Of a stretch of DNA of 64,000 nucleotides, positions 36,393 through 49,367 are shown piece by piece. A model generated the notes under the pieces. That model saw nothing but the letters and a program-made list of their open reading frames with translations. It had not been told where the DNA came from and made no database searches. Position 1 is the stretch's first letter. Each line of letters starts with the position of its first letter. This DNA comes from Desulfobacteraceae bacterium Eth-SRB1 (GTDB taxonomy: Bacteria > Desulfobacterota > Desulfobacteria > Desulfobacterales > ETH-SRB1). Made by a program: the position numbers and the translations under genes. The stretch is taken from assembly GCA_004193555.1 (NCBI GenBank), contig RPGP01000029.1, positions 36,093 to 100,092 on the forward strand, written 5' to 3'.

Positions 36393-37355
36393 TTACAGAT
36401 CCAATGGGCTTCGAACACCTCGCCCCCCTTTATTCAAAACATGAGTGTATATCATAGTAGTACTGACATCTTTATGGCCCAGAAGCTCTTGAATCGTCCG
36501 AATATCATAACCGTCCTCTAACAAATGTGTTGCAAAGCTGTGGCGAAACACATGGCTGCTTACCGTTTTTGTGACTCCTGAAATCCGAGCGGCTTTTTTT
36601 ATTGCCTTACTTAGACTATCCAGATGAATATGATGGCGTCTTTTAATACCGGAACGAGGGTCAACAGACAAGGTTTTGGATGGAAAGGCATACTGCCATC
36701 CCCATTCTTAGGAAGCATTTTTATATTTCTTTGCCAGAGCATTCGGAAGATAGACTGAACCATAGCCTTGAGACAAATCCTTTTCATGCAGCTTCTTGAC
36801 ATATTTTAGATGTTCTTTTAACGCAAGTTTAGCATCTTCCGGAAGCATTGTAACCCGGTCTTTTTGACCTTTGCCATTGCGAACTACAATCTGGTTCATC
36901 TCAAAATCTATATCTTTAACCCGCAATCTTACGCATTCAATCCCCCGAAGACCACATCCATAAAGAAGTTTTACTATCAATTGAAATATACCTGTGATGG
37001 AATTGATAATTTCCATAGTTTCATCAAATGTCAAAACAGTCGGAAGACGTTGAGGCTTTTTCGCTCGAAGCGCATCAATATTTTTAAATACATCTTTATT
37101 TAGAACATTTTTATATAAAAACAGTAATGCGCTGAAAGCCTGGTTTTGTGTTGAAGCAGCTACATTACCTTTGACAGCCAAATCGGTGAGAAATGCCTCT
37201 ATCTCTTTTTTGCCCATATCTTTTGGATGCCGCTTATTGTGAAAATAAATATATCGTTTTATCCATGAGACATATGCTTCTTCCGTCCTTATGGAGTAAT
37301 GTTTTAAACGAATCTTATTCCGTACGATGTCTAAAAGTTTCGGCTGCTGGTTCAT
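36393..37355 (-). pseudogene. intI: Integron integrase with an in-frame stop at 36708-36710
   Basis: [39 protein letters not shown], plus the integron-specific insert YLPNALAKKY...EWGWQY. The two ORFs are in the same frame, separated by TAA. Confidence 0.93.
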
Positions 37356-37699
37356 GGTATAATAACTTGATTTTAGAATAATTATGAAGTATAGGTTTAG
37401 AGAATTTTCTTCCATATTTGTACTATTTTTCTGGATTTTGCAACAAATAAAAGTTTATAAAGATATTTTTCTGAATATAACATTATATCTTTTTTTATTA
37501 AGAAATAATTATTAATTTTATTATAGAAATATTATTTGCGAAGGTTACCTAACAGAAAATATATTTTATATTTTTCAATAGATAGATTAATACACTTGAA
37601 ATGAATATAGATGTTAAAATACCTTTAAAGAAATCTAACATCCGGTATTTTAACATAATTTACAACTATTCAAGATAATTTAACTTTATTAACGTTATT

Positions 37700-38562: not shown

Positions 38563-38588
38563 GTAATAAAAAAGGAAATTACAAGTCA

Positions 38589-39245
38589 ATGACCAAAACG
38601 AACTTAACAATTGAACTTCTTCAGACAGAAGCCAATAAATTTGCTACAGTTGAATCTTCTCACGATGAGCCAAGTTTGTTTGGTGTAACAGACGGCAAGG
38701 CGGTTGGGACATACTTAGAACATAAATTTCAAAAATATCTGCATGAAAATTATGTATATATTGAAGGCTCATCCGCTAAAGGCATTGATTTCCCTGAACT
38801 CGGGGTTGATCTAAAAGTAACAAGCATTAAACAGCCACAGTCATCATGCCCTTTTAAATACGCAAAACAAAAAATATACGGCCTTGGATACGCATTGCTC
38901 GTTTTTGTTTATGAGAAAATTGATAAGAATAAACAAAAAACAGGCAGATTAAATATACATCACACTGTTTTTGTCGAGAAACATCGAACGGCGGATTTCC
39001 AAACAACTTCAGGGCTGAGAAAAATCATCGAGAACAATGGCAATCAAGATGATATTATAGCTTTCTTTGAAGAGCGTTTACTTCCAGTCGATGAGATCCA
39101 AGCACAAGAACTGGCCGAAGAAATATTACAAAAGCCGCCGGAACTTGGCTATTTGACGATATCAAACGCCCTACAGTGGAGGTTGCAATATAGTCGGGTA
39201 ATTCAAGAAGCCGGCAATATTGAAGGTATAAATAAGGTTTACTGA
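38589..39245 (+). CDS. Cassette 2: putative type II restriction endonuclease
   Basis: IDFP..GVDLKVTS resembles a PD-(D/E)xK motif; stop overlaps the MTase start (TGATG). Confidence 0.7.
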   Translation: MTKTNLTIELLQTEANKFATVESSHDEPSLFGVTDGKAVGTYLEHKFQKYLHENYVYIEGSSAKGIDFPELGVDLKVTSIKQPQSSCPFKYAKQKIYGLGYALLVFVYEKIDKNKQKTGRLNIHHTVFVEKHRTADFQTTSGLRKIIENNGNQDDIIAFFEERLLPVDEIQAQELAEEILQKPPELGYLTISNALQWRLQYSRVIQEAGNIEGINKVY

Positions 39246-40774
39246 TGACGAAAAAAAAGAAAATAGAATTTGGTGATTTCCAAACACCAATTGAACTTAC
39301 CGATAATATATCAAAATTTATTAAAACCATTTTCCCCACACCAAACATTATTATCGAGCCAACATGTGGCTTAGGGAGTTTCGTTAAATCCTGTAAATCT
39401 ATTTGGGGAACAGATTGCTCTTATTATGGGTTCGATGTAAATCCTCAATATATTGAAAAATGTAATACGAACATTAATGACCGAGGTAATTGCCACTTTG
39501 AAGTGGCAAATTTTTTCCAGAAAAACTGGAAGGATCTGTTTCTTACTTACAAAAAATCTAAAGTTTTAGTAGTCGGAAATCCTCCGTGGGTTACGAATGC
39601 GGCTTTGGGTGTTCTCAACAGTAGCAATTTGCCTCAAAAATCTAACTTTCAGGGTTTAGGTGGTTTTGCAGCAAAAACAGGAAAAGCAAATTTCGACATA
39701 GCAGAATGGATGCTAATAAAATTAATTGAAAGCTTAAAGGGATGTAACGCATGCATAGCAATGTTATGTAAAACAGCAACTGCTAGAAAAGTTTTAAAAC
39801 ACTTTTGGATTAATAATAGCCAAATTAATAATAGTTTTATTCATTTAATTGATGCTAAACAGTATTTTAACGTATCTGTTGATGCTTGCTTATTTGTCAC
39901 TTTCGTAAATTCTAAAGATAAATCTAAAGACGCATATATTTATAATGATTTGTCTTTTAGAAATGAAGTAACTCATTTAGGTATATATGCTAATGAATTA
40001 ATAGCAAATATTGATGATTTTGAGAAGTATCGTGATGTAGATGGTATTGATTACTATAAATGGCGTTCTGGAATTAAGCATGATGCTTCTAGGGTAATGG
40101 AGTTAACAAAGGATAATGATAAATTTAAAAACGGTTTCGGAGAATACGTTGAGATAGAGAGTGAATATCTATATCCGCTTTTAAAATCATCAGATCTTGG
40201 CAATAATAGACTTACACCTCGAAAATATGTGATTGTTACTCAAAAGACCGTAGGAGAAAATACTATAGTAATAAAAAAAACTGCACCGAAAACATGGGCA
40301 TATCTGGAACAGTATTCTTCTATTTTGGATAGCAGAAAAAGTATTATTTATAAGAATCGTCCACGATTTTCTGTTTTCGGTATAGGTGATTATAGTTTTA
40401 CTTCATGGAAGGTTGCGATTTCTGGTCTTTATAAAGGGATTCATTTCTGTGCAATTGGGCAGTATGATAAAAAACCGATTATGGTAGATGATACTTGTTA
40501 TTTTATCCCATGTAGTTCAAAAGCTGAAGCAATACTTTTTGCTCAACAACTAAATTCTGAACCTTGCATGAAATTTCTTAAATCTTTAATATTTTTTGAT
40601 GCCAAGAGGCCAATTAATATAGATATTTTAAGAAGGATTGATTTTAAAAAACTTTCTGAAATAAATGAAAAAGAGGATGAAGTTTTAAAATTTTTGACTT
40701 ATGCCCAAGCTCCATTAACTCAACAACTCTCGTTGGTTTTTGAAAAAACGGAAGAATACCGAACAATCGGATGA
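39245..40774 (+). CDS. Cassette 2: N6-adenine DNA methyltransferase (gamma class)
   Basis: Motif I IEPTCGLGSF, motif IV GNPPW. Confidence 0.88.
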   Translation: MTKKKKIEFGDFQTPIELTDNISKFIKTIFPTPNIIIEPTCGLGSFVKSCKSIWGTDCSYYGFDVNPQYIEKCNTNINDRGNCHFEVANFFQKNWKDLFLTYKKSKVLVVGNPPWVTNAALGVLNSSNLPQKSNFQGLGGFAAKTGKANFDIAEWMLIKLIESLKGCNACIAMLCKTATARKVLKHFWINNSQINNSFIHLIDAKQYFNVSVDACLFVTFVNSKDKSKDAYIYNDLSFRNEVTHLGIYANELIANIDDFEKYRDVDGIDYYKWRSGIKHDASRVMELTKDNDKFKNGFGEYVEIESEYLYPLLKSSDLGNNRLTPRKYVIVTQKTVGENTIVIKKTAPKTWAYLEQYSSILDSRKSIIYKNRPRFSVFGIGDYSFTSWKVAISGLYKGIHFCAIGQYDKKPIMVDDTCYFIPCSSKAEAILFAQQLNSEPCMKFLKSLIFFDAKRPINIDILRRIDFKKLSEINEKEDEVLKFLTYAQAPLTQQLSLVFEKTEEYRTIG

Positions 40775-40830
40775 ACTCTGACTGAAAAAGCCTGGCCGTT
40801 TTTTGGTTTCTACAAATTTTGTTGTTTATC
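40758..40830 (+). other. attC site 2, left half (interrupted by IS21)
   Basis: R'' ACCGAAC is the complement of GTTCGGT at the start of cassette 2; L'' GGATGAACTCTGA; ends abruptly at TGTCAA. Confidence 0.85.
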
Positions 40831-40955
40831 TGTCAATGGACAATAATTTTGACCCACTACCGGACAATAAAACTGACCCACCCCCTGCACTTAGTTTAAA
40901 TTGATTTTTTGTTTGAGCCGATAGCTTTCACCCCCCATCATAAAAATATGTGAAC
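40831..40955 (-). mobile_element. IS21-family terminal region (probable right end)
   Basis: TGTCAATGGACAATAATTTTGACCCACTACCGGACAATAAAACTGACCCACC: TG start and tandem transposase-binding repeats. Confidence 0.75.
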
Positions 40956-42295
40956 CAAATGGCATTACCAAAGGCAGCCTGGATTAATAAACCATCACCG
41001 AGATAAAGAGAAGTGATTCGGTGATACACTAAATACTGATGGAGGTGTCTCATTTTCATTGACACATTCCGCATTACCTTTAATGGTTCTTAACCGTCAT
41101 ATTGAAATAATCATCAAGTGCATAATGTGCAAAGATATTTGGCTATCGGACTACGAACGCTTAGTAGCCTCCTTCATCACTTACCGTTAATTCTCCATTA
41201 CTGAGAATACCTGCCTTAAACATCCTTCGGATATATCTTAGGAAGCGTTTATCTTGTATCTTGCTGGACAATTGTTCCATCAGTAGTTCATGGTCAATTG
41301 TTCTAAAATAGTTTGACAAGTCAAGATCAATAACTTTCCTCACTGATTGGCTGTATAAATGTCTTCGAAGTTCTTTTAAAGCATCATGACACCCCAATTT
41401 TGGTCTAAGTCCATATGAGCTATTCCAAAATAAAGGTTCATAGATAGCTTCAAGTATTTTCTGCACTCCTTTCTGGACAATTTTATCTTCAAAATTGCCT
41501 ATTCCCAATGGTCTTGTAAGCACATTTCTTCCTTCTTTTAGAATTAGTATCTCACCAAGAATAAAGGGAATATGCAGGGGACATTGTTTTCAACTTTTTC
41601 AGTAGAGCATCGAGATTCTCCTCCAGATTTTCACCATACTTTTCTTTTGTCATACCATCAATACCAACCGCTGCTTTTCCTTTGAGCGACTGATACCAAT
41701 CCAGCAAATTCTCTTTATTGAAATGATGCATTAATTGATTAAATACCATTTCAGGATTATCTGCTGATAATTTACTTATTATTGCAAATTTTGTTTCCAT
41801 AATTACCGATATTCTGCGCTACTATCGTGTCGCTGCAATATCAATTATAACCTGGGCCTTCCTCCACCGGCGTTACCCGGTTTCAACAGTACTATGAGTC
41901 CTCCCCGACCTATTATTCGTCTCAATTTCCTTGCTTATTAGGCTTTGTAATTGATACTCCATCCATGGAGGAAACAGTAAGGTCTCCACGTTTATAAAAT
42001 AGCTTTGTTTACATGCCACGATCCTCGGGAGGTGCCATAACGTCTACCATTTGGCGTTGAGGATTTATGGTGTTGTTTGCCTTCTGACGCCGCGAGCGAA
42101 ATGAAAGCACCTCAAATGACAAAATTAACGGAACTCAATCGCTTCAACATATGTTTCGGCCCCACCTAAACTCTGCAATGCTGCAGCACAATGGCTTGTT
42201 ACCAGACGCTGCACAAGACTCGATAATCGATGTGCCGGGTCAAAGCACTTTCGATGTATTCACTTTCAGATGCCAGCTGGCACTTCGTGGCGCAC
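40955..42295 (-). repeat. Indel-rich inverted copy of 45754-47100 (group II intron 5' part, RT fragments and IS3 end)
   Basis: Same GTGCGCCACGAAGTG start, same RT peptide (frameshifted), same IS3 junction. Confidence 0.9.
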
Positions 42296-42315
42296 AGCGG
42301 TTTTTTGCGTCGGCT

Positions 42316-43180
42316 TCCGGGTAAAGGTACCGGTTACCCGGCGCCCTCCCCACAGACCCGTACGTGAAGCTTGCCCTCATACGGTTCCTCGATTCAGGCC
42401 CTTTTTACCGAGCCGTCAACCAATCAGGCGACACCCCGATTGGCGCATAACTTTGATGCCCATAGGCAAATCAAATATTATTGTGGACTATTCTGGGTAG
42501 CGGTAATGGGTGCGTTCTGCGCAAGTCTTCGAACAAGACGTTGCCAGTGTGACTGCGGCGGCTTAGCCACCTCCGCCACGCCCTCTCGGGATGTTCGAAC
42601 ACGACTTCCAGAGCCTTGTAATTACCACAAACTCCGTAGTACTGGTAAAAACCCCTTAACTTACTCCAGAGCACCTTGTACTGTTCTTTCATCGCATCAT
42701 GCCGGTTAGCCTTACACCATTGCCACAGCATCTTCATGAAACGGTGTAACCGCTTCCTCGCTGTTTTCTTCTTTATCACCCAATATCCTCTTCGAGACTT
42801 CCCCCAGTAAAATGTGAATCCAAGAAAGTCAAACGTTCCCTTTCCTTTCCGCACTACCTTTGAAGCCGGCTTCCTGAACGGAATTACCCTGGTTTTTTCC
42901 GGATGAAGGGCCAACCCATAGCGATTAAACCGCTTGGGCAATACGTCCATTATCCTTGCAGCGTCTGATTCCAGTTCACAACCTATTACGAAATCATCCG
43001 CCCAACGGATTATGAAGCATTTCCCTTTCATTCGGGGTAAAGCTTTCTTTACGACCCAGTCGTCGAGTACATAGTGGAGAAATATATTGGAAAGCACGGG
43101 CGAAATCACCCCGCCTTGGGGTGTGCCTTTCCCGGGATGAGAAAGAACTCCTTCCTCCATTACACCTGCATTCAACCATT
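42316..43180 (-). mobile_element. Group II intron A, 3' half: RT/maturase C-terminal part (ORF 42471-43175) plus domains V and VI
   Basis: GTPQGG, RWADD, LHPEKT; DV/DVI GGAACCGTATGAGGGCAAGCTTCACGTACGGGTCTGTGGG...TACCCGGA. Confidence 0.9.
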
Positions 43181-43194
43181 TGGACGCGGGCTTA

Positions 43195-44286
43195 GGGGAC
43201 GTTCTTCAGTTCATAAGTTTGTATCATCAATGAGTAAATATTGATGTTCTTTTGCGATTTTTTCACCCCGTTTTACAGACAAACTCACGGCTGGTTCAGA
43301 TAATTTCAGCTTACGTGAAAGTTCCGACATCCTCATTCCCAATTCCCTGACGGCCCAATAGCACAGCAAACTTCTTGCCTGAACTATGTGAGGATATTTT
43401 CCTTTTATCCACAAATCTTTGGCTTCAAGCCCCAATAGATGAGAAACCCGCCGGACAACCTTGTCAAGATCAAACCCCATGGCCTGAAGAGAATATTTTT
43501 TATCCAGTTTGTCTTGAGCAGCTTTAAGGACTGTATTGACAAAATCACCATCACCCAAAATACGCTCATCACCTTTTTGATAAACTCCGGCCCTTCGCAT
43601 TGATTTTGCTTCTGACCATCCACCTATGCTGCGTATTAAACCTCCACCAGTCAGATCAGTTCTTTTTCCGTCAGGAATTCCTTTCTTTACATAAGATCGA
43701 TATCGCCGCCTCGCAACAGAAACCTTTGTATCGAATAAACACAGGACAATCAAGGGGAATAGGGTACATTCTTCACATTGTAAGTTGCTAATATATAGAA
43801 AGAGTGACATAAAAAAATATGCCAAGAAAAGTCAGGATAGATGCATCTGGTGCTCTTCACCACATTATTGCCAGAGGCATTGATAGAAATACAATCTTTC
43901 AGGATGATTTTGACCGAAAGAACTTTATAGACAGTTTGGAAAGATGTCCATGACGCTTGTGCCTGCGATTATATGACATGGCATAACCGGTCAAAAGTCG
44001 TCTCATCACTGTTGCAACAGGAGCAAGACCGGTTCTGAGCAGCAAATGGAAATGATTCGGAATCAGCGCCCAGGCATAGCAGATTGTTTTGCTTTCATTT
44101 AGAATGGCAGGCAGCCTGTCTATAAAGTTCTTTCGGTCAAAATCGTCACCAATTGCCGACATAATCAATGCCTCTGCAAGCGTAGTAATTGAGAGCACCA
44201 GAGCATCTATCCTGGCTTTCCATGGCATATTTTTCTTGTGTCACACTTTCTATATATTAGCAACTTATAATGTGAAGAACGTCCCC
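43195..44286 (-). mobile_element. Y1 (HUH) RAYT-like transposase element with 25-bp terminal inverted repeats; centre disrupted
   Basis: MP.KARIDA..., YAWALIPNHFHLLLRTG, C-terminal HTH; TIRs GGGGACGTTCTTCAnnnnATAAGTT at 43195-43219 and 44262-44286; TA on both flanks. Confidence 0.8.
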
Positions 44287-44288
44287 TA

Positions 44289-44612
44289 TACCCCCCATTG
44301 CTTATACTCAACAGCAATTAAGTATGGTGCTGTAATGATAAAATCTGGACGGATAGTTTCTTCGCCGCAAAAGGTGAGTAGCACGTTCTTAACTCCCCAT
44401 ACGCACCTTCTGCCCCTCAATAAAGTTATATTGCCTTTCAAGGCATCATATATCCAGATTCGGAAAATGTTTCCAATGGTTCCATTTCGAACTTCCGGGT
44501 TTTGGATTTAAATTGCGGGTTGCCGACAATATATTTATGAACCTCCTCAATAAATTGGAATTGGACTTTAGCTGTTTTCTTCGATTACCAAGGCCCCCTC
44601 ACCTATTTTGAG
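44289..44612 (-). pseudogene. Remnant of cassette 3 (possible PD-(D/E)xK nuclease), cut by the RAYT element
   Basis: Follows R' of attC2; frameshifted peptide ending IRPDFIITAPYLIAVEYKQW. Confidence 0.35.
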
Positions 44613-44687
44613 CTATAACAACAAGGATAACCTGATGATGAAAGCAAAACAAATATGGCTACAAAAGCAAAGAAAGATTAGGTAAGC
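44613..44687 (-). other. attC site 2, right half (displaced and inverted)
   Basis: Minus strand TCAGGTTATCC-TTGTT-GTTATAG; TCAGGTTATCC pairs with GGAT[G]AAC[T]CTGA of the left half; abuts the IS21 left end. Confidence 0.75.
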
Positions 44688-45753
44688 TGTTAGCGGTCCG
44701 TTTATAATGACGGTAGCCGAACAATAAAACTGACCCACCCTCAAACAGTGCTTAACAGGCAGCATAATAAAAAAATTATTTACCATAATTAATATGTTGT
44801 AGGAGGTTCCTCATTATTTTCAATAAGGAGGAACAGATGTGAAGAAGATTGGAATAGCCAGGTTTACATAAAGATTAAATTGCTCTATGATGATGATGGC
44901 CAGCGGGTACATTTTAGCTCCGTGCCATTGCTATCAGACTTCAGGTATCGAGGAATACAATCGAAGATACCTGCAAATGAATGAGGAAGAGATCTGCAAG
45001 ATATGTAAAGCAAGAGACGGACAGAACTCGGTAAAATATAAAATTATATTATCTCCTGCTTGAAAATATGAAGAAATTATCTGCTGTTAAAATCAAACTT
45101 AAAATAGGGATAGTTTAACTGTCTCTAACGGGTCACCAGCCAAGGCGCTACGTAAACGGAATCAGGCAAACTATAGCCATTGAGAGCAGAAACGCTATTA
45201 TGAACCTGTTATGGATATGGTTCCAGGGAGTTCAGTGCTTGGTGAATCACGGAGAAATCAAGGAGGAATGTTCCTGTTGGCGATAAATTTATCACTATCC
45301 TATTTTGTAGTATTTGTTCTCTCTTTTTACGACAAATGCTTGTATGTTGCGGCCTCTAATCGGCCAATTAATACAGAAGGCATGTTTATCAAGGATGCAT
45401 GATGAGGGCCTTTTAGATACTTTGACGGTGTTTGTGAAATTATTATTCTATGACCAGACTAAGCTTGTTACAATCACCAGAAGGAGTTCAGAGGAGGAGT
45501 CTGGTTCAATGAAAGTTTTTTATCAATATGCTTCTGCGGCCCTTGGATATATACGAGGTATGTGAAGGATATTATGACCGAAACAAGAACCCAAGGGTCG
45601 AGTCCGGTGTAAAATATGTAAGAACGATTTTTTTTCTATGGCGACACATTTGATTCTTTTTGATCAGCTCAAGCACGAATCTTTGCAGTTAGATTGGATA
45701 CGGTTGCAAACAAAAAGCGTATTCACGGCTTACGAAAAAGCCGGAAGAACTTT
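44688..45753 (+). mobile_element. istA: IS21 left end and frameshifted 5' part of istA
   Basis: TGTTAGCGG...ACAATAAAACTGACCCACC; peptides RAIAIRLQVSRNTI, RYYEPVMDMVPG, YDQTKLV, ESGVKYV across frameshifts. Confidence 0.75.
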
Positions 45754-46988
45754 GTGCGCCACGAAGTGTAAAATAACTGGCATCTGAAAGTGAATGCATC
45801 GAAAGTGCAACCCAGCACATCGATTATCGAGTCTTGTGCGGTGTCTGGTAACAGGCACTGTAAAGCGTAGACAGAGAGTTTGTAGGCCGGAAACATATGT
45901 TGAAGTGATTGAGTTCCGTTAATTTTGTCATTTGAGGATGGCTGATGGCTTCGCGGCGTCAGAAAGCAATATCATAGCCGACACTAAATGGGGAGGAAGC
46001 TATGACACCTTCGGGATCGTAGAGCCTGGCATGCAAACAAAGCTATTTTATAAACGTGGGAGACCCTATTGTTTCTCCAAGGATAGAGTATCAATTACAA
46101 GCCTAATAAGCGAGAAAGTTGAGACGAATAATAGGGAGTCAGAGAACTCATAGTACTGAAGAAGCCGGGTAATGCCGGTGGAGGGAAGGGGTTCAGGTTA
46201 AATCGCTATTGTGAAGGACACATAATAGATAACACAGAATATCGGTGATTATGAGAACAAAATTTGCAATAATAAATAGATTATCAGCAGAAAATCCTGA
46301 AATGGTGTTTAATCAATTGATGCACCACTTCAATAAAGAAAATTTGCTGAATTGGTATCAATCGCTCAAAAGAAAAGCAGCGGTCGGTAGTGATGGTATG
46401 ACAAAAGAAGAATATGGTAAAAATCTTGAAGAGAATCTTGATACTCTACTGGAAAAGCTGAAGACAATGTCCTATGTTCCCGGTTCTGTAAAGCAAATAT
46501 TAATTCCTAAAGAAGGAAGTAAAGGAGCTACAAGACCATTGGGAATAGGCAATTTTGAAGATAAAATTGTCCAGAAAGGAGTGCAGAAAATACTTGAAGC
46601 TATCTATGAACCTTTATTTTGGAATAGCTCATATGGATTTAGACCAAAATTGGGGTGTCATGATGCTTTAAAAGAACTTCGAAGACATTTATACAGCCAA
46701 TCAGTGAGGAAAGTTATTGATCTTGACTTGTCAAACTATTTTGGAACAATTGACCATGAACTACTGATGGAACAATTGTCAAACAAGATACAAGATAAAC
46801 GCTTCCTAAGATATATCCGAAGGATGTTTAAGGCAGGTATTCTCAGTAATGGAGAATTAACGGTAAGTGATGAAGGAGTGCCACAAGGTAGTGTCTGTAG
46901 TCCGATATTAGCCAATATCTTTGCACATTATGCACTTGATGATTGGTTTAATATGACGGTTAAGAACCATTGTAAAGGTAATGCGGAA
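45754..46988 (+). mobile_element. Group II intron B, 5' half with RT N-terminal part (ORF from about 46251), truncated by IS3
   Basis: GTGCG 5' end; AAVGSDG, RPLGI, SYGFRP, DLSNYF, GVPQGS; stops before the YADD motif. Confidence 0.9.
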
Positions 46989-48558
46989 TGTGTCAATGAA
47001 AATGAGACACCTCCATCAGTAATTTAGTGTATCACCGAATCACTTTCATTCGGTGATGGTTTATTAATCCAGGCTGCCTTTGGTAATGCCATCGGTTTTG
47101 GAACCTTTCCCTTGAACCGGTTTGGATGTTTTTCAAAGGCTATTTTCAATACCTTTTCACGCTCTTTGATAATTTGTTCAGCCCGTCCATAATGTACATC
47201 TTCCGGTGTGACAAAACCAATACCTGAATGGTAGTGTCCTGTATTGTACCAAAGGAAGAAGCCATGACAAAAGAATCTGGCATCTTCAATAGCGCCAAAC
47301 CGCTCTGGAAACTCAGGCCGATATTTCATGGTCTTGAACTGCGATTCTGAATAAGGGTTGTCATTGCTGACGTAGGGTCTTGAATGACTTTTGGTAATCC
47401 CTAAATCAGCCAATAACAATGCCTTAAAATAATAAAGATGTTAATTGGCCTCTTGGCATCAAAAAATATTAAAATTTAAGAAATTTCATGCAAGGTTCAA
47501 ATTTAGTTGTTGAGGCAAAGTATTGCTTCAGCTTTTTGAACTACATGGGATAAAATAACAAGTATCATCTACCACTTAATCGGTTTTTATCATACTGCCC
47601 AATTGCACAAAATAAGATCGCTTTATAAAGACCAGAAATCGCAACCTTCCATGAAGTAAAACTATAATCCACCTATACCGAAACAGAAATCGTGGACCGA
47701 TTCTTATAAAAATAATACTTTTTCTGCTATCAAATAAGAATACTGTTCCAGATATGCCCATGTTTTAGTTTTTTTTTATTACTATAGTATTTTCTCCTAC
47801 AGTCTTTTTGAGTAGCTGTCATATTTTCGAGGGTGTAAGTCTATTATTGCCAAGATCTGATGATTTTAAAGCGGATATAGATATTCACTCTCTATCTCTT
47901 GTATTCTCGAAACCGTTTTTAAATTTATCATTATCCTTGTTAACTCCATTACCCGCAGAAGCATCGTAGCAATTTCCAGAACGCCATTTATAGTAATCAA
48001 TACCATCTACATCCGCGATACTTCTCCAAAATCATCAATATTTGCTATTAATTCATTAGCATATATACCTAAATGAGTTACTTCATTTCTAAAGACAAAT
48101 CATTATAAATATATGCGTCTTTAGATTTATCTTTAAATTTACAGAAGTGACAAATAAAGCAAGCATCAACAGATACGTTACAATACTGTTTAGCATCAGT
48201 GCCGTGAATAAAACTATTATTAATTTGTGTAATCAAAGTGTTTTAAAACTTTCACAGCAGTTGCTGTACATAAAGCATTGCTATGCATGCGTTACATCCT
48301 TTAAACTTTTCAATTAATTTTATTGGCATCCATTCTGCTATGTCGAAATTTGCTTTTCTGTTTGCTGCAAAACCTACACCTAAACACAAAGAGAGTTAGA
48401 TTTTGAGGGCAAATTGCTGTTGAGAACACACACCCAATTTGTTGCTTTGCTAACATGGGTTGCTATTGATGCATTCTTTAACATTTTATTTCTCCTTCCC
48501 GCCCTCTATAATATACACTAAATTATAGGTTGGGAAGTGTCTCACTTATATTGGCACA
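46989..48558 (-). mobile_element. IS3-family element, 1570 bp, interior overwritten
   Basis: 26-bp IRs TGTGTCAATGAAAATGAGACACCTCC (46989) and TGTGCCAATATAAGTGAGACACTTCC (48558); transposase C-terminus at 47024-47419 (SNDNPYSES, WYN...H); RBS and ATG at 48484. Confidence 0.85.
47425..48437 (-). repeat. Indel-rich inverted copy of the MTase gene segment 39605-40630
   Basis: Colinear reverse-complement match across about 1 kb with many small indels. Confidence 0.92.
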
Positions 48559-49367
48559 GAGGGTGGAACATCTTCAAGTGAAATAAATCTGAAAATATCT
48601 CTTAATATTCCAATGGTGCGGGGGATATTTTCATAGGCGAGTTTTCTGTTGAAATCCTTTTTTGCCCGCATTCGTGCGGCAAACAGGCCATAAGTGATTG
48701 TCTGGGAATAGAGATCTGCAAAGTCTTCTTTTGAAAGCCCGCTGATTAAAAACTGCCTGAATGCGTCATAAAATCCAAGGATAAAGCTTTTGCCGGTTTT
48801 TTCTTCCTCTGCCAGTTCATCGGCAATTACCTCGTTCTTTAAAAAGCTCGTGCGTTTTGCAAGCTCTATTGCCAGATTTTTTGCATTATAAACCTTGGGC
48901 AAAGAGAATGAATAAAACGCCTCCATCAATTTTGTAAAATCCGGTTCTTTTTCAACAGGAGGAATTGTTTTGAGCTTATGTACGATAAAGGGTCGTGCTA
49001 TTAATACTTTATTGACAAGAATGCCGTTTCGATAAAGCCTGAACTCGAAAAAATTGGTTAATATCAGGTTGGGGAAGGTTTTTCTGTATCTTTTTAGCTG
49101 TTCTGACTCTTCTATCAAATCCAGATTTTCAGTTGTTGGGGCTTTAGCTTCTATATATCCTACAATATGCTGCCTTCCATCCCAGACCCGGAAATCAGGA
49201 TTGCCTGCCTCGGTGGCTTTGGGGAGTGTGGTAATGTGTATTTTGCTTTTGCCGAAAGATTGCGCTATTTTTTTGAACAATTCATCAAGGGTTGCATAAT
49301 AACTTTCCTCCCTGGCATCCCCCTGATTTGCAATTTTAAATATTTTTTTCAGATAAGATTTCAGCAT
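48559..49367 (-). pseudogene. N-terminal part of a type IIG/ISP restriction-modification enzyme, truncated by IS3
   Basis: AREESYY, GNPDF...GYIEAK nuclease motif, FADLYSQTITYGLFAAR; frame runs into the IS3 IR. Confidence 0.8.

Follow-up and report, generated by a model that had tools for sequence, protein, structure and literature searches.

Inverted chimeric reads, i.e. artificial palindromes that arise after whole-genome amplification, have been described for both PacBio and Nanopore sequencing and are addressed by Pacasus (bioRxiv 10.1101/173872, PMC6218980). As outlined in the Pacasus report, such reads join the sequence of a locus to its own reverse complement, as is seen at the locus studied here. 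At the present genome, they would account for error-rich inverted twins at many loci of one assembly. Fold-back artefact reads in long-read data are the subject of the Breakinator preprint (PMC12338684); in the outline given there, a technical strand switch creates false inverted structures, and an earlier note on this DNA had raised this option for the present locus. The locus also resembles repeats that were filled with unpolished long-read sequence in hybrid assemblies of short-read contigs and long reads: the clean part of its IS ends extends over about 125-127 bp or as far as a shared edge, and the interiors are gap-rich with 76-92% identity. Ordinary long-read fill, although noisy, is correct in sequence and orientation, whereas the fill found here reads as the reverse complement of the DNA next to it. 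Finally, genuine invertible segments (IS- or inverted-repeat-flanked inversions, shufflons and invertase switches) share with our locus the two orientations around a fixed centre. They have end repeats or recombinase sites and clean junctions, however, whereas the locus has no such ends and its junctions lie at contig edges. Judging from the sequence, the 8.8-kb pseudo-palindrome described here is very probably a mis-assembly artefact that stems from a mirrored long-read layer.

A minus-strand self-comparison of the window, i.e. the whole 64-kb stretch of DNA analysed here, revealed three inverted blocks with one common axis at about 44,025:

Block A, 39609-40620 versus 48429-47438, inverted: 90.2% identity, 34 mismatches, 51 gap openings
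Block B, 40959-42296 versus 47092-45753, inverted: 86.5% identity, 110 mismatches, 51 gap openings
Block C, 43754-43934 versus 44294-44116, inverted: 81.5% identity, 7 gap openings

The coordinates of the inverted pairs add up to 88038-88058, and no co-axial pairs beyond these blocks were detected in the entire window. The spacers between the blocks are unmatched and unrelated in sequence but equal in length across the axis (338 versus 345 bp, and 1457 versus 1458 bp). This geometry, together with the replaced interiors of the elements described below, is far beyond what chance can explain. The earlier note had described the methyltransferase, intron and RAYT pairs as reverse complements around one axis and had suggested a self dot-plot as a check; the self-comparison with its three co-axial blocks bears this out.

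The outermost pair and the adjacent IS21-family element involve the following features:

39245-40774, plus strand: N6-adenine DNA methyltransferase (MTase) gene of an integron-borne type II restriction-modification (R-M) cassette; intact 509-aa ORF with Pfam N6_Mtase, clean
47424-48436, minus strand: noisy mirror of the MTase (true copy 39609-40625), occupying the place of about 1 kb of IS3 interior
40775-40830, plus strand: left half of an attC-like sequence; agrees, as far as the IS21 end, with two uninterrupted homologs, C40:1008913-1009028 and L001
44622-44686, minus strand: noisy right half of this attC-like sequence; its match in the same two homologs follows directly on the left half
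40831-40958, plus strand: clean terminal part (about 125 bp) of an IS21-family element; 98-99% identity shared with at least 8 other copies, limited to about 124-131 bp
44688-45753, minus strand: noisy, mirrored part of the IS21 element (element coordinates about 1460 to the end); 84% identity and 74 gap openings relative to the clean copy C1:1066203-1067231

The MTase gene is in its true position and true orientation (state alpha): the region 38566-40829 is 97.6% identical, with 0 gaps, to L001, a contig of an independent MAG. The adjoining restriction endonuclease (REase) matches NF052465 with 354.6 bits. The attC-like sequence is interrupted by the IS21 insertion at position 92/93 of the uninterrupted homologs, and its right half adjoins an IS21 end in the mirrored layer only. 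The restored attC junction is backed by L001 and is the sole external junction that supports the restored layout. The clean end of IS21 stops at an abrupt junction without homology (40958/40959). A clean reference copy of the element (C1:1066211-1068685) has 2475 bp and encodes IstA (522 aa with HTH, rve and Mu-transposase C-terminal domains) and IstB (IstB_IS21, 225 bits). When the pieces at 40831 and 44688-45753 are un-mirrored, they fit one element of about 2531 bp, in good accordance with the previous suggestion that the mirrored IS21 ends imply an element of about 2.5 kb with an interior of mirror intron. About 1.3 kb of the IS21 interior is missing, and mirrored intron-1/IS3 sequence of matching length is in its place.

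The IS3-family element at the right edge of the structure has been affected in the same manner:

46984-48563, 1580 bp: whole IS3-family element; clean ends of 440 bp and 127 bp, interior 47424-48436 is the noisy MTase mirror
46984-47423, no strand assigned: clean 440-bp end; 100% identity to two other copies, rve_3 in ORF 47024-47419
48437-48563, no strand assigned: clean 127-bp other end; 100% identity to 4 other copies, the matches spanning exactly 125-127 bp

Both junctions flanking the mirrored interior (47423/47424 and 48436/48437) are abrupt. Among the IS3-like copies, only C40:872115-873693 (1579 bp versus 1580 bp in the window) has a real interior; it carries HTH_Tnp_1, the rve core and rve_3, and this full domain set and the rve_3 in the window end place the element in the IS3 family. 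The copy C40:802387-803928 is unsuitable as a reference, as its own interior is mirrored. The lack of an integrase core in the window copy is due to the artefact. That the IS3 ends are in place around about 1 kb of mirrored MTase had been seen from the letters alone, and the comparison of 47424-48436 with its clean twin (90.2% identity, 51 gap openings) agrees with this.

Close to the axis, a RAYT gene encoding a Y1 transposase is broken by its own 5' end:

43214-43747, minus strand: RAYT residues 161-338, clean and mirrored; 91% identity without gaps to the 338-aa homolog P0001 (tblastn)
43748-43940, plus strand: clean, un-mirrored copy of the RAYT 5' end with codons 1-40 at 43819-43938; 99% identity to the repeat copy C1:1099086-1099280
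43941-44115, minus strand: RAYT residues ~38-97, a clean continuous frame across the axis (44,024.5)
44116-44294, minus strand: noisy, mirrored RAYT 5' end and upstream sequence, the twin of 43754-43934; frameshifts in codons 9-27

The assignment to the RAYT/IS200-like Y1 group rests on the similarity to P0001, which carries PF01797. In the gene (43214-44228), amino acids 98-160 (189 bp) are absent, and 193 bp with the mirrored first 40 codons of the gene itself are found instead, just as the earlier note had proposed for about 200 bp. The loss of these residues is due to the artefact; the missing middle was not found on the other contigs of the assembly. The axis itself is free of a palindrome, and RAYT codons 41-97 traverse it as one continuous, non-palindromic frame.

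Two partial group II introns, each recognized by its ribozyme domains and an RT/maturase ORF, make up the remaining part of the locus:

45754-46989, plus strand: clean 5' part of intron-1 (D1-D4 and N-terminal RT half), truncated by the IS3-like element
40959-42300, minus strand: noisy mirror of the intron-1 5' part and IS3 end (state beta; true copy 45754-47092), located where the IS21 interior is expected
42314-43182, minus strand: 3' half of intron-2 (RT C-terminal half, maturase, D5/D6), clean, in mirrored position

The clean copy of intron-1 is 95.8% identical, with 1 gap opening, to C1:346882-348118; it contains Pfam RVT_1 positions 1-142 and scores 120.8 bits with Rfam RF02005 (D1-D4), compared to 21.6 bits for its noisy mirror twin. 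For intron-2, RVT_1 positions 117-205 and GIIM were identified in ORF 42471-43175, and the Rfam Intron_gpII D5/D6 match at 42315-42389 (minus strand) has 37.3 bits, slightly under the gathering score of 40. The idea that the RT halves at 46245-47027 (plus strand) and 42471-43175 (minus strand) are one mirror-split gene was dropped: tblastn assigns them to two intron families (39% versus 95% identity), with intron-2 sharing 39% amino acid identity with the matching part of the intron-1 family. The true position of intron-2 would be about 44867-45735 on the plus strand.

In each inverted pair, one twin is accurate and the other carries indel-dominated errors of the long-read type. Noisy and clean twins differ by 1.71, 0.58 and 1.10 indel events per substitution, in line with the initial impression that one copy of each pair is full of small indels, compared to 0.06 for two genuine intron paralogs. 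Relative to L001, the clean MTase copy has 0 gaps, whereas the noisy copy is 88.5% identical with 54 gap openings. Of 52 diagnostic sites in the noisy intron copy, 49 have the state of the local clean copy rather than that of the C1 paralog; the noisy copy therefore derives from its own locus. Indels are weakly enriched at homopolymers, too weakly to identify the sequencing platform from this link. One might think of a genuine chromosomal inverted duplication with one decaying arm, both arms having been patched later by insertions; the structure is present in the deposited sequence, and large natural palindromes do exist. We consider this extremely unlikely: the ratio of 0.6-1.7 versus 0.06 indel events per substitution is unlike evolutionary decay, and the 49 shared diagnostic sites would require a very recent duplication, yet the copies differ by 10-14%. 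Moreover, the lengths of the unrelated spacers and replaced interiors agree to within 0-4% in three to five cases, the axis is not palindromic, and the error-laden twins across the genome are all inverted, none direct. The earlier note had argued that position-matched replacement is hard to obtain by normal decay and fits a consensus of two orientations; the matching lengths (1580/1579 bp for IS3, 189/193 bp for RAYT) are in keeping with this view.

Two layers with distinct error profiles are present at the locus, with in-register replacements between them, and the pattern recurs elsewhere in the assembly. We suggest that the assembly consists of accurate pieces of short-read quality joined by raw, error-rich long-read sequence, and that between about 39.6 and 48.4 kb the long-read layer carrying the true sequence T0 was placed as its reverse complement, in register. 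The accurate pieces would have kept their true orientation, i.e. both flanks, the repeat edges of the RAYT 5' end, and intron-1 with the IS3 end, so that the gaps between them would expose the mirrored layer. According to this model, 40831-40958 would be the final portion of the accurate left contig and 48437-48563 the beginning of the right one, with the ends of the mirrored layer concealed beneath these flank contigs. T0 would run from intI through cassette 1, the R-M cassette (REase and MTase) and an attC-like site with one intact 2.5-kb IS21 to RAYT, and it would continue with the intron-2 3' half, 20 nt, the 5' part of intron-1, an intact 1.58-kb IS3 and the right flank.

This model is supported by several observations. 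A single un-mirrored layout repairs three broken mobile elements and the split attC-like site, and the noisy layer is co-linear with T0: the distance from the MTase to the IS21 end is 2753 bp versus 2698 bp expected, within read noise. The switch points at 40958 and 48437 lie about 125-127 bp inside the IS ends, the repeated intron edge begins at 45754, itself a switch point, and a further switch point coincides with a shared 127-bp segment (47297-47423). Across the genome, 24 of 60 exact-repeat pairs have a length of 122-130 bp with a mode of 127; although there are many IS copies, just 8 pairs are longer than 260 bp. The simple rule that noisy sequence is mirrored and clean sequence true fails, since intron-2 and most of RAYT are clean yet mirrored. 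Instead, mirrored pieces are noisy only where a clean twin or other copies exist: the mirrored MTase, intron-1 with the IS3 end and the RAYT 5' end would have stayed noisy next to an accurate local twin, and IS21 as a multi-copy element. The mirrored stretches that lack a twin, intron-2 and the larger part of RAYT, are accurate, which presumably reflects that short reads or contigs could map only there. The predicted T0 junction (intron-2 3' end, 20 nt, intron-1 5' end) had 0 matches in public metagenome contigs, and the search for an independent assembly of the strain found none, with 0 matches in an exact look-up of the MTase and at most 92% identity among the RAYT cluster members.

As to the technical step, an unflipped reverse-strand read, an inverted chimeric read, e.g. 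from whole-genome amplification, and paired fold-back reads may be considered. The classic palindromic read has a single fold point, whereas the mirrored layer is continuous over the axis and reflects both sides; its origin thus calls for a read placed in reverse, an inverted chimera whose breakpoints lie far apart, or a pair of fold-back reads. Likewise, measured against the fold-back reads outlined in the Breakinator preprint, the axis lacks a hairpin-type palindrome, and one such read would cover the mirrored pieces of one side only. One fold-back read at the axis is therefore not a sufficient cause; two fold-back reads sharing one turning point are possible. Of the fold-back artefact proposed in the earlier note, the technical origin is favoured, but the structure does not require a simple fold-back at the axis, with RAYT codons 41-97 crossing it.

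The alternative offered in the same note, a real inversion polymorphism in which both orientations of a segment centred on 44,025 were mixed in the consensus by the assembler, seems improbable to us. It is true that the block 42296-45753 is what one simple inversion would make of the inferred T0 block, its midpoint (44,024.5) being the axis, and rearrangements are plausible in such an IS-rich genome. However, a co-axial search of the window detected neither inverted repeats nor recombination sites at the ends of this or any larger segment, and the junctions are abrupt without homology. The breakpoints, in the middle of IstA and at the first base of the intron, correspond to contig or repeat edges. 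A single inversion fails in any case, as the six switch points imply different intervals: 40958/40959 implies 40955-47090, 45753/45754 implies 42296-45753, and the MTase mirror (47424-48436) lies outside both. With the mirrored MTase and the mirrored intron-1 with its IS3 end located outside 42296-45753, an overlay artefact would be required regardless. The noisy layer, co-linear with T0 and with an IS21 of intact size, gives no read-level hint of an inverted molecule, and the other loci with a similar pattern would demand equally many unflanked inversions. We also regard it as improbable that some of the mirrored layer stems from a subpopulation with a real inversion of about 3.5-9 kb, located at the distal end of the integron's cassette array, with the isomers merged by the assembler and the inversion having arisen without flanking inverted repeats, e.g. 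via IS21 or group II intron activity. Of the two options in the earlier note we thus favour the artefact.

The mirrored-layer artefact is not confined to this locus. The 14 local inverted duplicates with a length of 400 bp or more are without exception indel-rich, 10 of them with more gap openings than mismatches, in contrast to 0 of 39 local direct duplicates with this indel-rich profile. Inverted indel-rich recurrence was found on C37, on C1 at about 428.5 kb, on C40 at about 156.6, 800.3 and 877.4 kb, and on C29 at about 195.2 kb. On C37, three co-axial blocks have equal spacers (678/672 and 819/818 bp), and at C1 ~428.5 kb one side of the 6.1-kb arms contains intact ORFs of 515, 318 and 316 aa, the other side none above 141 aa. 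Clean ends around a noisy mirror of the adjacent DNA are also seen in two further IS3-like copies. A split vapC gene on C29 at about 195 kb was rejected as a second in-register example, its halves lying about 270-370 bp off the palindrome register.

The value of this finding lies in curation rather than in biology. The region of about 40,959-48,436 is pieced together from true and mirrored sequence, the assembly lacks about 1.3 kb of IS21, 189 bp of RAYT and about 1 kb of IS3, and the genes at about 40-48.5 kb should be interpreted in un-mirrored order. This applies to the attC half that appears inverted 3.8 kb away, the RAYT broken by its own 5' end, the MTase fragments within IS3, and the broken MTase, intron and IS pseudogenes. 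Inverted duplications, split genes and seemingly decaying arms should also be treated with suspicion in the other suspect regions of the genome (C1 418-439 kb; C37 0.8-5.3 kb; C40 ~156, 797-804 and 870-885 kb; C29 193-197 kb; C28 8-11 kb). The combination of co-axial inverted blocks, unrelated spacers of equal length, a twin rich in indels and switch points that coincide with the edges of repeats provides a reusable screen for hybrid and long-read assemblies.

Comparison of 38-50 kb of the window with its own minus strand returned three inverted blocks, and the co-axial inverted pairs described in the earlier note proved correct in all details checked:

Inverted blocks in the minus-strand self-comparison
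Block A: 39609-40620 versus 48429-47438; 90.2% identity, 34 mismatches, 51 gap openings
Block B: 40959-42296 versus 47092-45753; 86.5% identity, 110 mismatches, 51 gap openings
Block C: 43754-43934 versus 44294-44116; 81.5% identity

Since their coordinate sums are 88038-88058, the blocks lie on one axis near 44,025. The unrelated spacers between them are equal in length on the left and on the right (338 versus 345 bp, and 1457 versus 1458 bp), and no further co-axial pair was found across the whole 64-kb window. The sequence comparisons presented here indicate that this 8.8-kb pseudo-palindrome is very probably an assembly artefact and not a real genomic feature. The locus was mapped against further copies of its elements in the genome, Pfam and Rfam (clean, accurate sequence; noisy, indel-rich sequence):

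Features of the locus
36708-37415, minus strand: integron integrase ORF (TIGR02249, 279 bits, profile positions 1-208 of 315 only)
39245-40774: MTase, clean
40775-40830: left half of an attC-like site
40831-40958: IS21 end, clean
40959-42300: mirror of IS3 end and intron-1, noisy
42314-43182, minus strand: 3' half of intron-2, a group II intron other than intron-1, clean
43214-44228, minus strand: RAYT (Y1 transposase) gene
44622-44686: right half of the attC-like site, noisy
44688-45753: part of IS21, inverted, noisy
45754-46989: 5' part of intron-1, clean
46984-47423: IS3 end, clean
47424-48436: mirror of MTase, noisy
48437-48563: IS3 end, clean, 127 bp, then the right flank

In the RAYT gene, a clean plus-strand copy of the gene's initial 40 codons (43748-43940) takes the place of residues 98-160, and the true 5' end (44116-44294) is noisy. 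A short repeat immediately 3' of the gene (43191-43316), with about a dozen copies of 35-124 bp and 80-94% identity on contigs C1, C29 and C40, may be its REP/MITE-type partner.

Per substitution, the noisy twins show 1.71, 0.58 and 1.10 indel events relative to their clean counterparts, as compared to 0.06 when the clean copy of intron-1 is set against its genuine C1 paralog. The clean MTase cassette is 97.6% identical over 2264 bp, with 0 gaps, to an independent MAG contig (L001, JAYEFW010000001.1), against which the noisy MTase copy has 54 gap openings. In the ribozyme domain, the Rfam score drops from 120.8 bits in the clean intron to 21.6 bits in the noisy copy. At the sites that separate the local intron from the C1 paralog, the noisy copy has the local state at 49 of 52, and it is thus an error-laden copy of this very locus. 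Judged by these profiles, the noise in the mirrored twins is technical and not evolutionary. A genuine palindrome in decay is contradicted by this error profile, by the near-identity at the diagnostic sites and by the repeated length matches; moreover, the axis itself is without palindrome, as RAYT codons 41-97 span it in one frame.

All pieces of the region can be assigned to one of two layers, alpha (true coordinates) or beta (reverse complement about a sum of ~88,049), with abrupt switches between them: alpha to 40958, beta 40959-43747, alpha 43748-43940, beta 43941-45753, alpha 45754-47423, beta 47424-48436, and alpha from 48437. Flipping beta gives a single sensible layout, T0, which would read MTase, attC-like site with an intact IS21, RAYT, 3' half of intron-2, 20 nt, 5' part of intron-1, intact IS3, right flank. 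Four tests lend support to this putative layout: (i) For the attC-like sequence, uninterrupted homologs exist on C40 and L001; in the window, the left half stops and the mirrored right half starts at neighbouring homolog positions (92/93), and the right half adjoins the IS21 end in the beta layer only. (ii) The un-mirrored IS21 measures ~2531 bp versus 2475 bp for a clean reference with intact IstA and IstB. (iii) The IS3 of the window has 1580 bp versus 1579 bp for the sole genome copy with the rve core. (iv) In RAYT, 189 bp are missing and 193 bp stand in their place; the missing segment was found nowhere else in the assembly. The noisy layer is co-linear with T0 (2753 bp from MTase to the IS21 end versus 2698 bp expected, within read-level length noise), suggesting that it is long-read sequence from T0-type molecules and wrong only in its orientation in the assembly. 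Noise persisted in those mirrored pieces for which the region also contains a clean counterpart (MTase, intron-1 together with the IS3 end, and the RAYT 5' end) and in the multi-copy IS21. Mirrored pieces lacking a twin, namely intron-2 and the larger part of RAYT, are clean, a distribution to be expected from short-read correction of a mirrored fill. Neither exact look-up of the MTase nor RAYT relatives or metagenome contigs revealed an independent assembly of the strain.

Intron-1 is cut short by the IS3-like element (46984-46989) at the position equivalent to C1:346882. Since its sequence does not pick up again after IS3, at 48564, the intron is a genuine 5' fragment, and an IS-associated deletion is suggested rather than a simple insertion. 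In the mirrored layer (42296-42314), the 3' end of intron-2 (...TACCCGGA) is followed by 20 nt and the GTGCG start of intron-1. They are two distinct group II introns arranged in tandem; over the RT C-terminal half, their RTs are 39% identical. Their junction is visible only across a noisy/clean boundary, and it was not found in public metagenome contigs.

The switches, too, appear to be technical. Those at 40958 and 48437 lie ~125-127 bp inside IS ends, another coincides with the end of a 127-bp segment that C1 copies also have (47297-47423), and the one at 45754 falls exactly where the repeated intron edge begins, on its first base, and interrupts the IstA reading frame within a codon. Genome-wide, 24 of 60 exact-repeat pairs are 122-130 bp long (mode 127), and only 8 exceed 260 bp despite a genome full of IS copies. 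Such a pattern is the hallmark of an assembly in which long-read sequence, left uncorrected, connects accurate contig or graph edges.

The earlier note had left open whether an artefact or a real inversion polymorphism was at hand, and it is the artefact that gained support. An inversion polymorphism is disfavoured: inverted repeats are absent from the flanks of every co-axial interval, the intervals implied by the junctions disagree (40955-47090 versus 42296-45753), the mirrored MTase lies outside both, and an overlay artefact would be required anyway. The artefact may stem from a read that was used in reverse (unflipped), from an inverted chimera, a type of read common after whole-genome amplification (Pacasus, PMC6218980), or from a pair of fold-back reads (compare Breakinator, PMC12338684). 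A single fold-back read at the axis is ruled out by mirrored sequence on both sides.

Similar structures recur in this assembly of 3.34 Mb and 52 contigs, in which the window corresponds to C29:36093-100092, each with one arm intact and the other indel-rich:

Other noisy pseudo-palindromes of the assembly
C40:155823-157388 and C40:796735-803803: two IS3-like copies in which clean ends enclose a noisy mirror of nearby DNA; axes ~156,634 and ~800,262
C37:845-5321: three co-axial blocks, equal-length spacers (678/672 and 819/818 bp)
C1:418462-438581: around ~428.5 kb, 6.1-kb arms, 91% identity, 277 gap openings; ORFs of 515, 318 and 316 aa in the left arm, none >141 aa in the right arm
C40:869607-885237: around ~877.4 kb
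C29:193300-197086: around ~195.2 kb
C28:8269-11269: around ~9.8 kb

As a control, local duplicates of 400 bp or more were compared by orientation: all 14 inverted ones are indel-rich, with more gap openings than mismatches in 10, and such a profile is absent from all 39 local direct duplicates. Error-laden twins arise in inverted orientation only. The other pseudo-palindromes probably represent the same artefact, with a probable loss of real sequence at each of these loci. Around the C29 palindrome, beside an IS21 end, the C-terminal half of a PIN/VapC protein (C29:192846-193088, plus strand) and its N-terminus (MKYLLDTCV, C29:197321, minus strand) lie ~4.2 kb apart on opposite strands and ~270-370 bp off its register; this split vapC locus could not be reduced to a simple mirror in register.

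Upstream of the mirrored region, the partial integron integrase gene is, by its profile match, interrupted or truncated, which would be consistent with an inactive chromosomal integron. The upstream cassette encodes a type II restriction endonuclease (NF052465, 354.6 bits) and the N6-adenine MTase. This unit (38566-40829) is 97% identical, without gaps, to L001 3601-5864 and L002 389-2600, contigs of two MAGs (Thermodesulfobacteriota MAG262 and Deltaproteobacteria HYP3_UM_29). The homology to L002 stops near the MTase stop, while that to L001 extends through the attC-like sequence and then diverges. In these alignments, the unit behaves as a mobile (integron cassette-like) restriction-modification module. 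As for the pseudo-palindrome, its biological interest is low and its value for curation is high.
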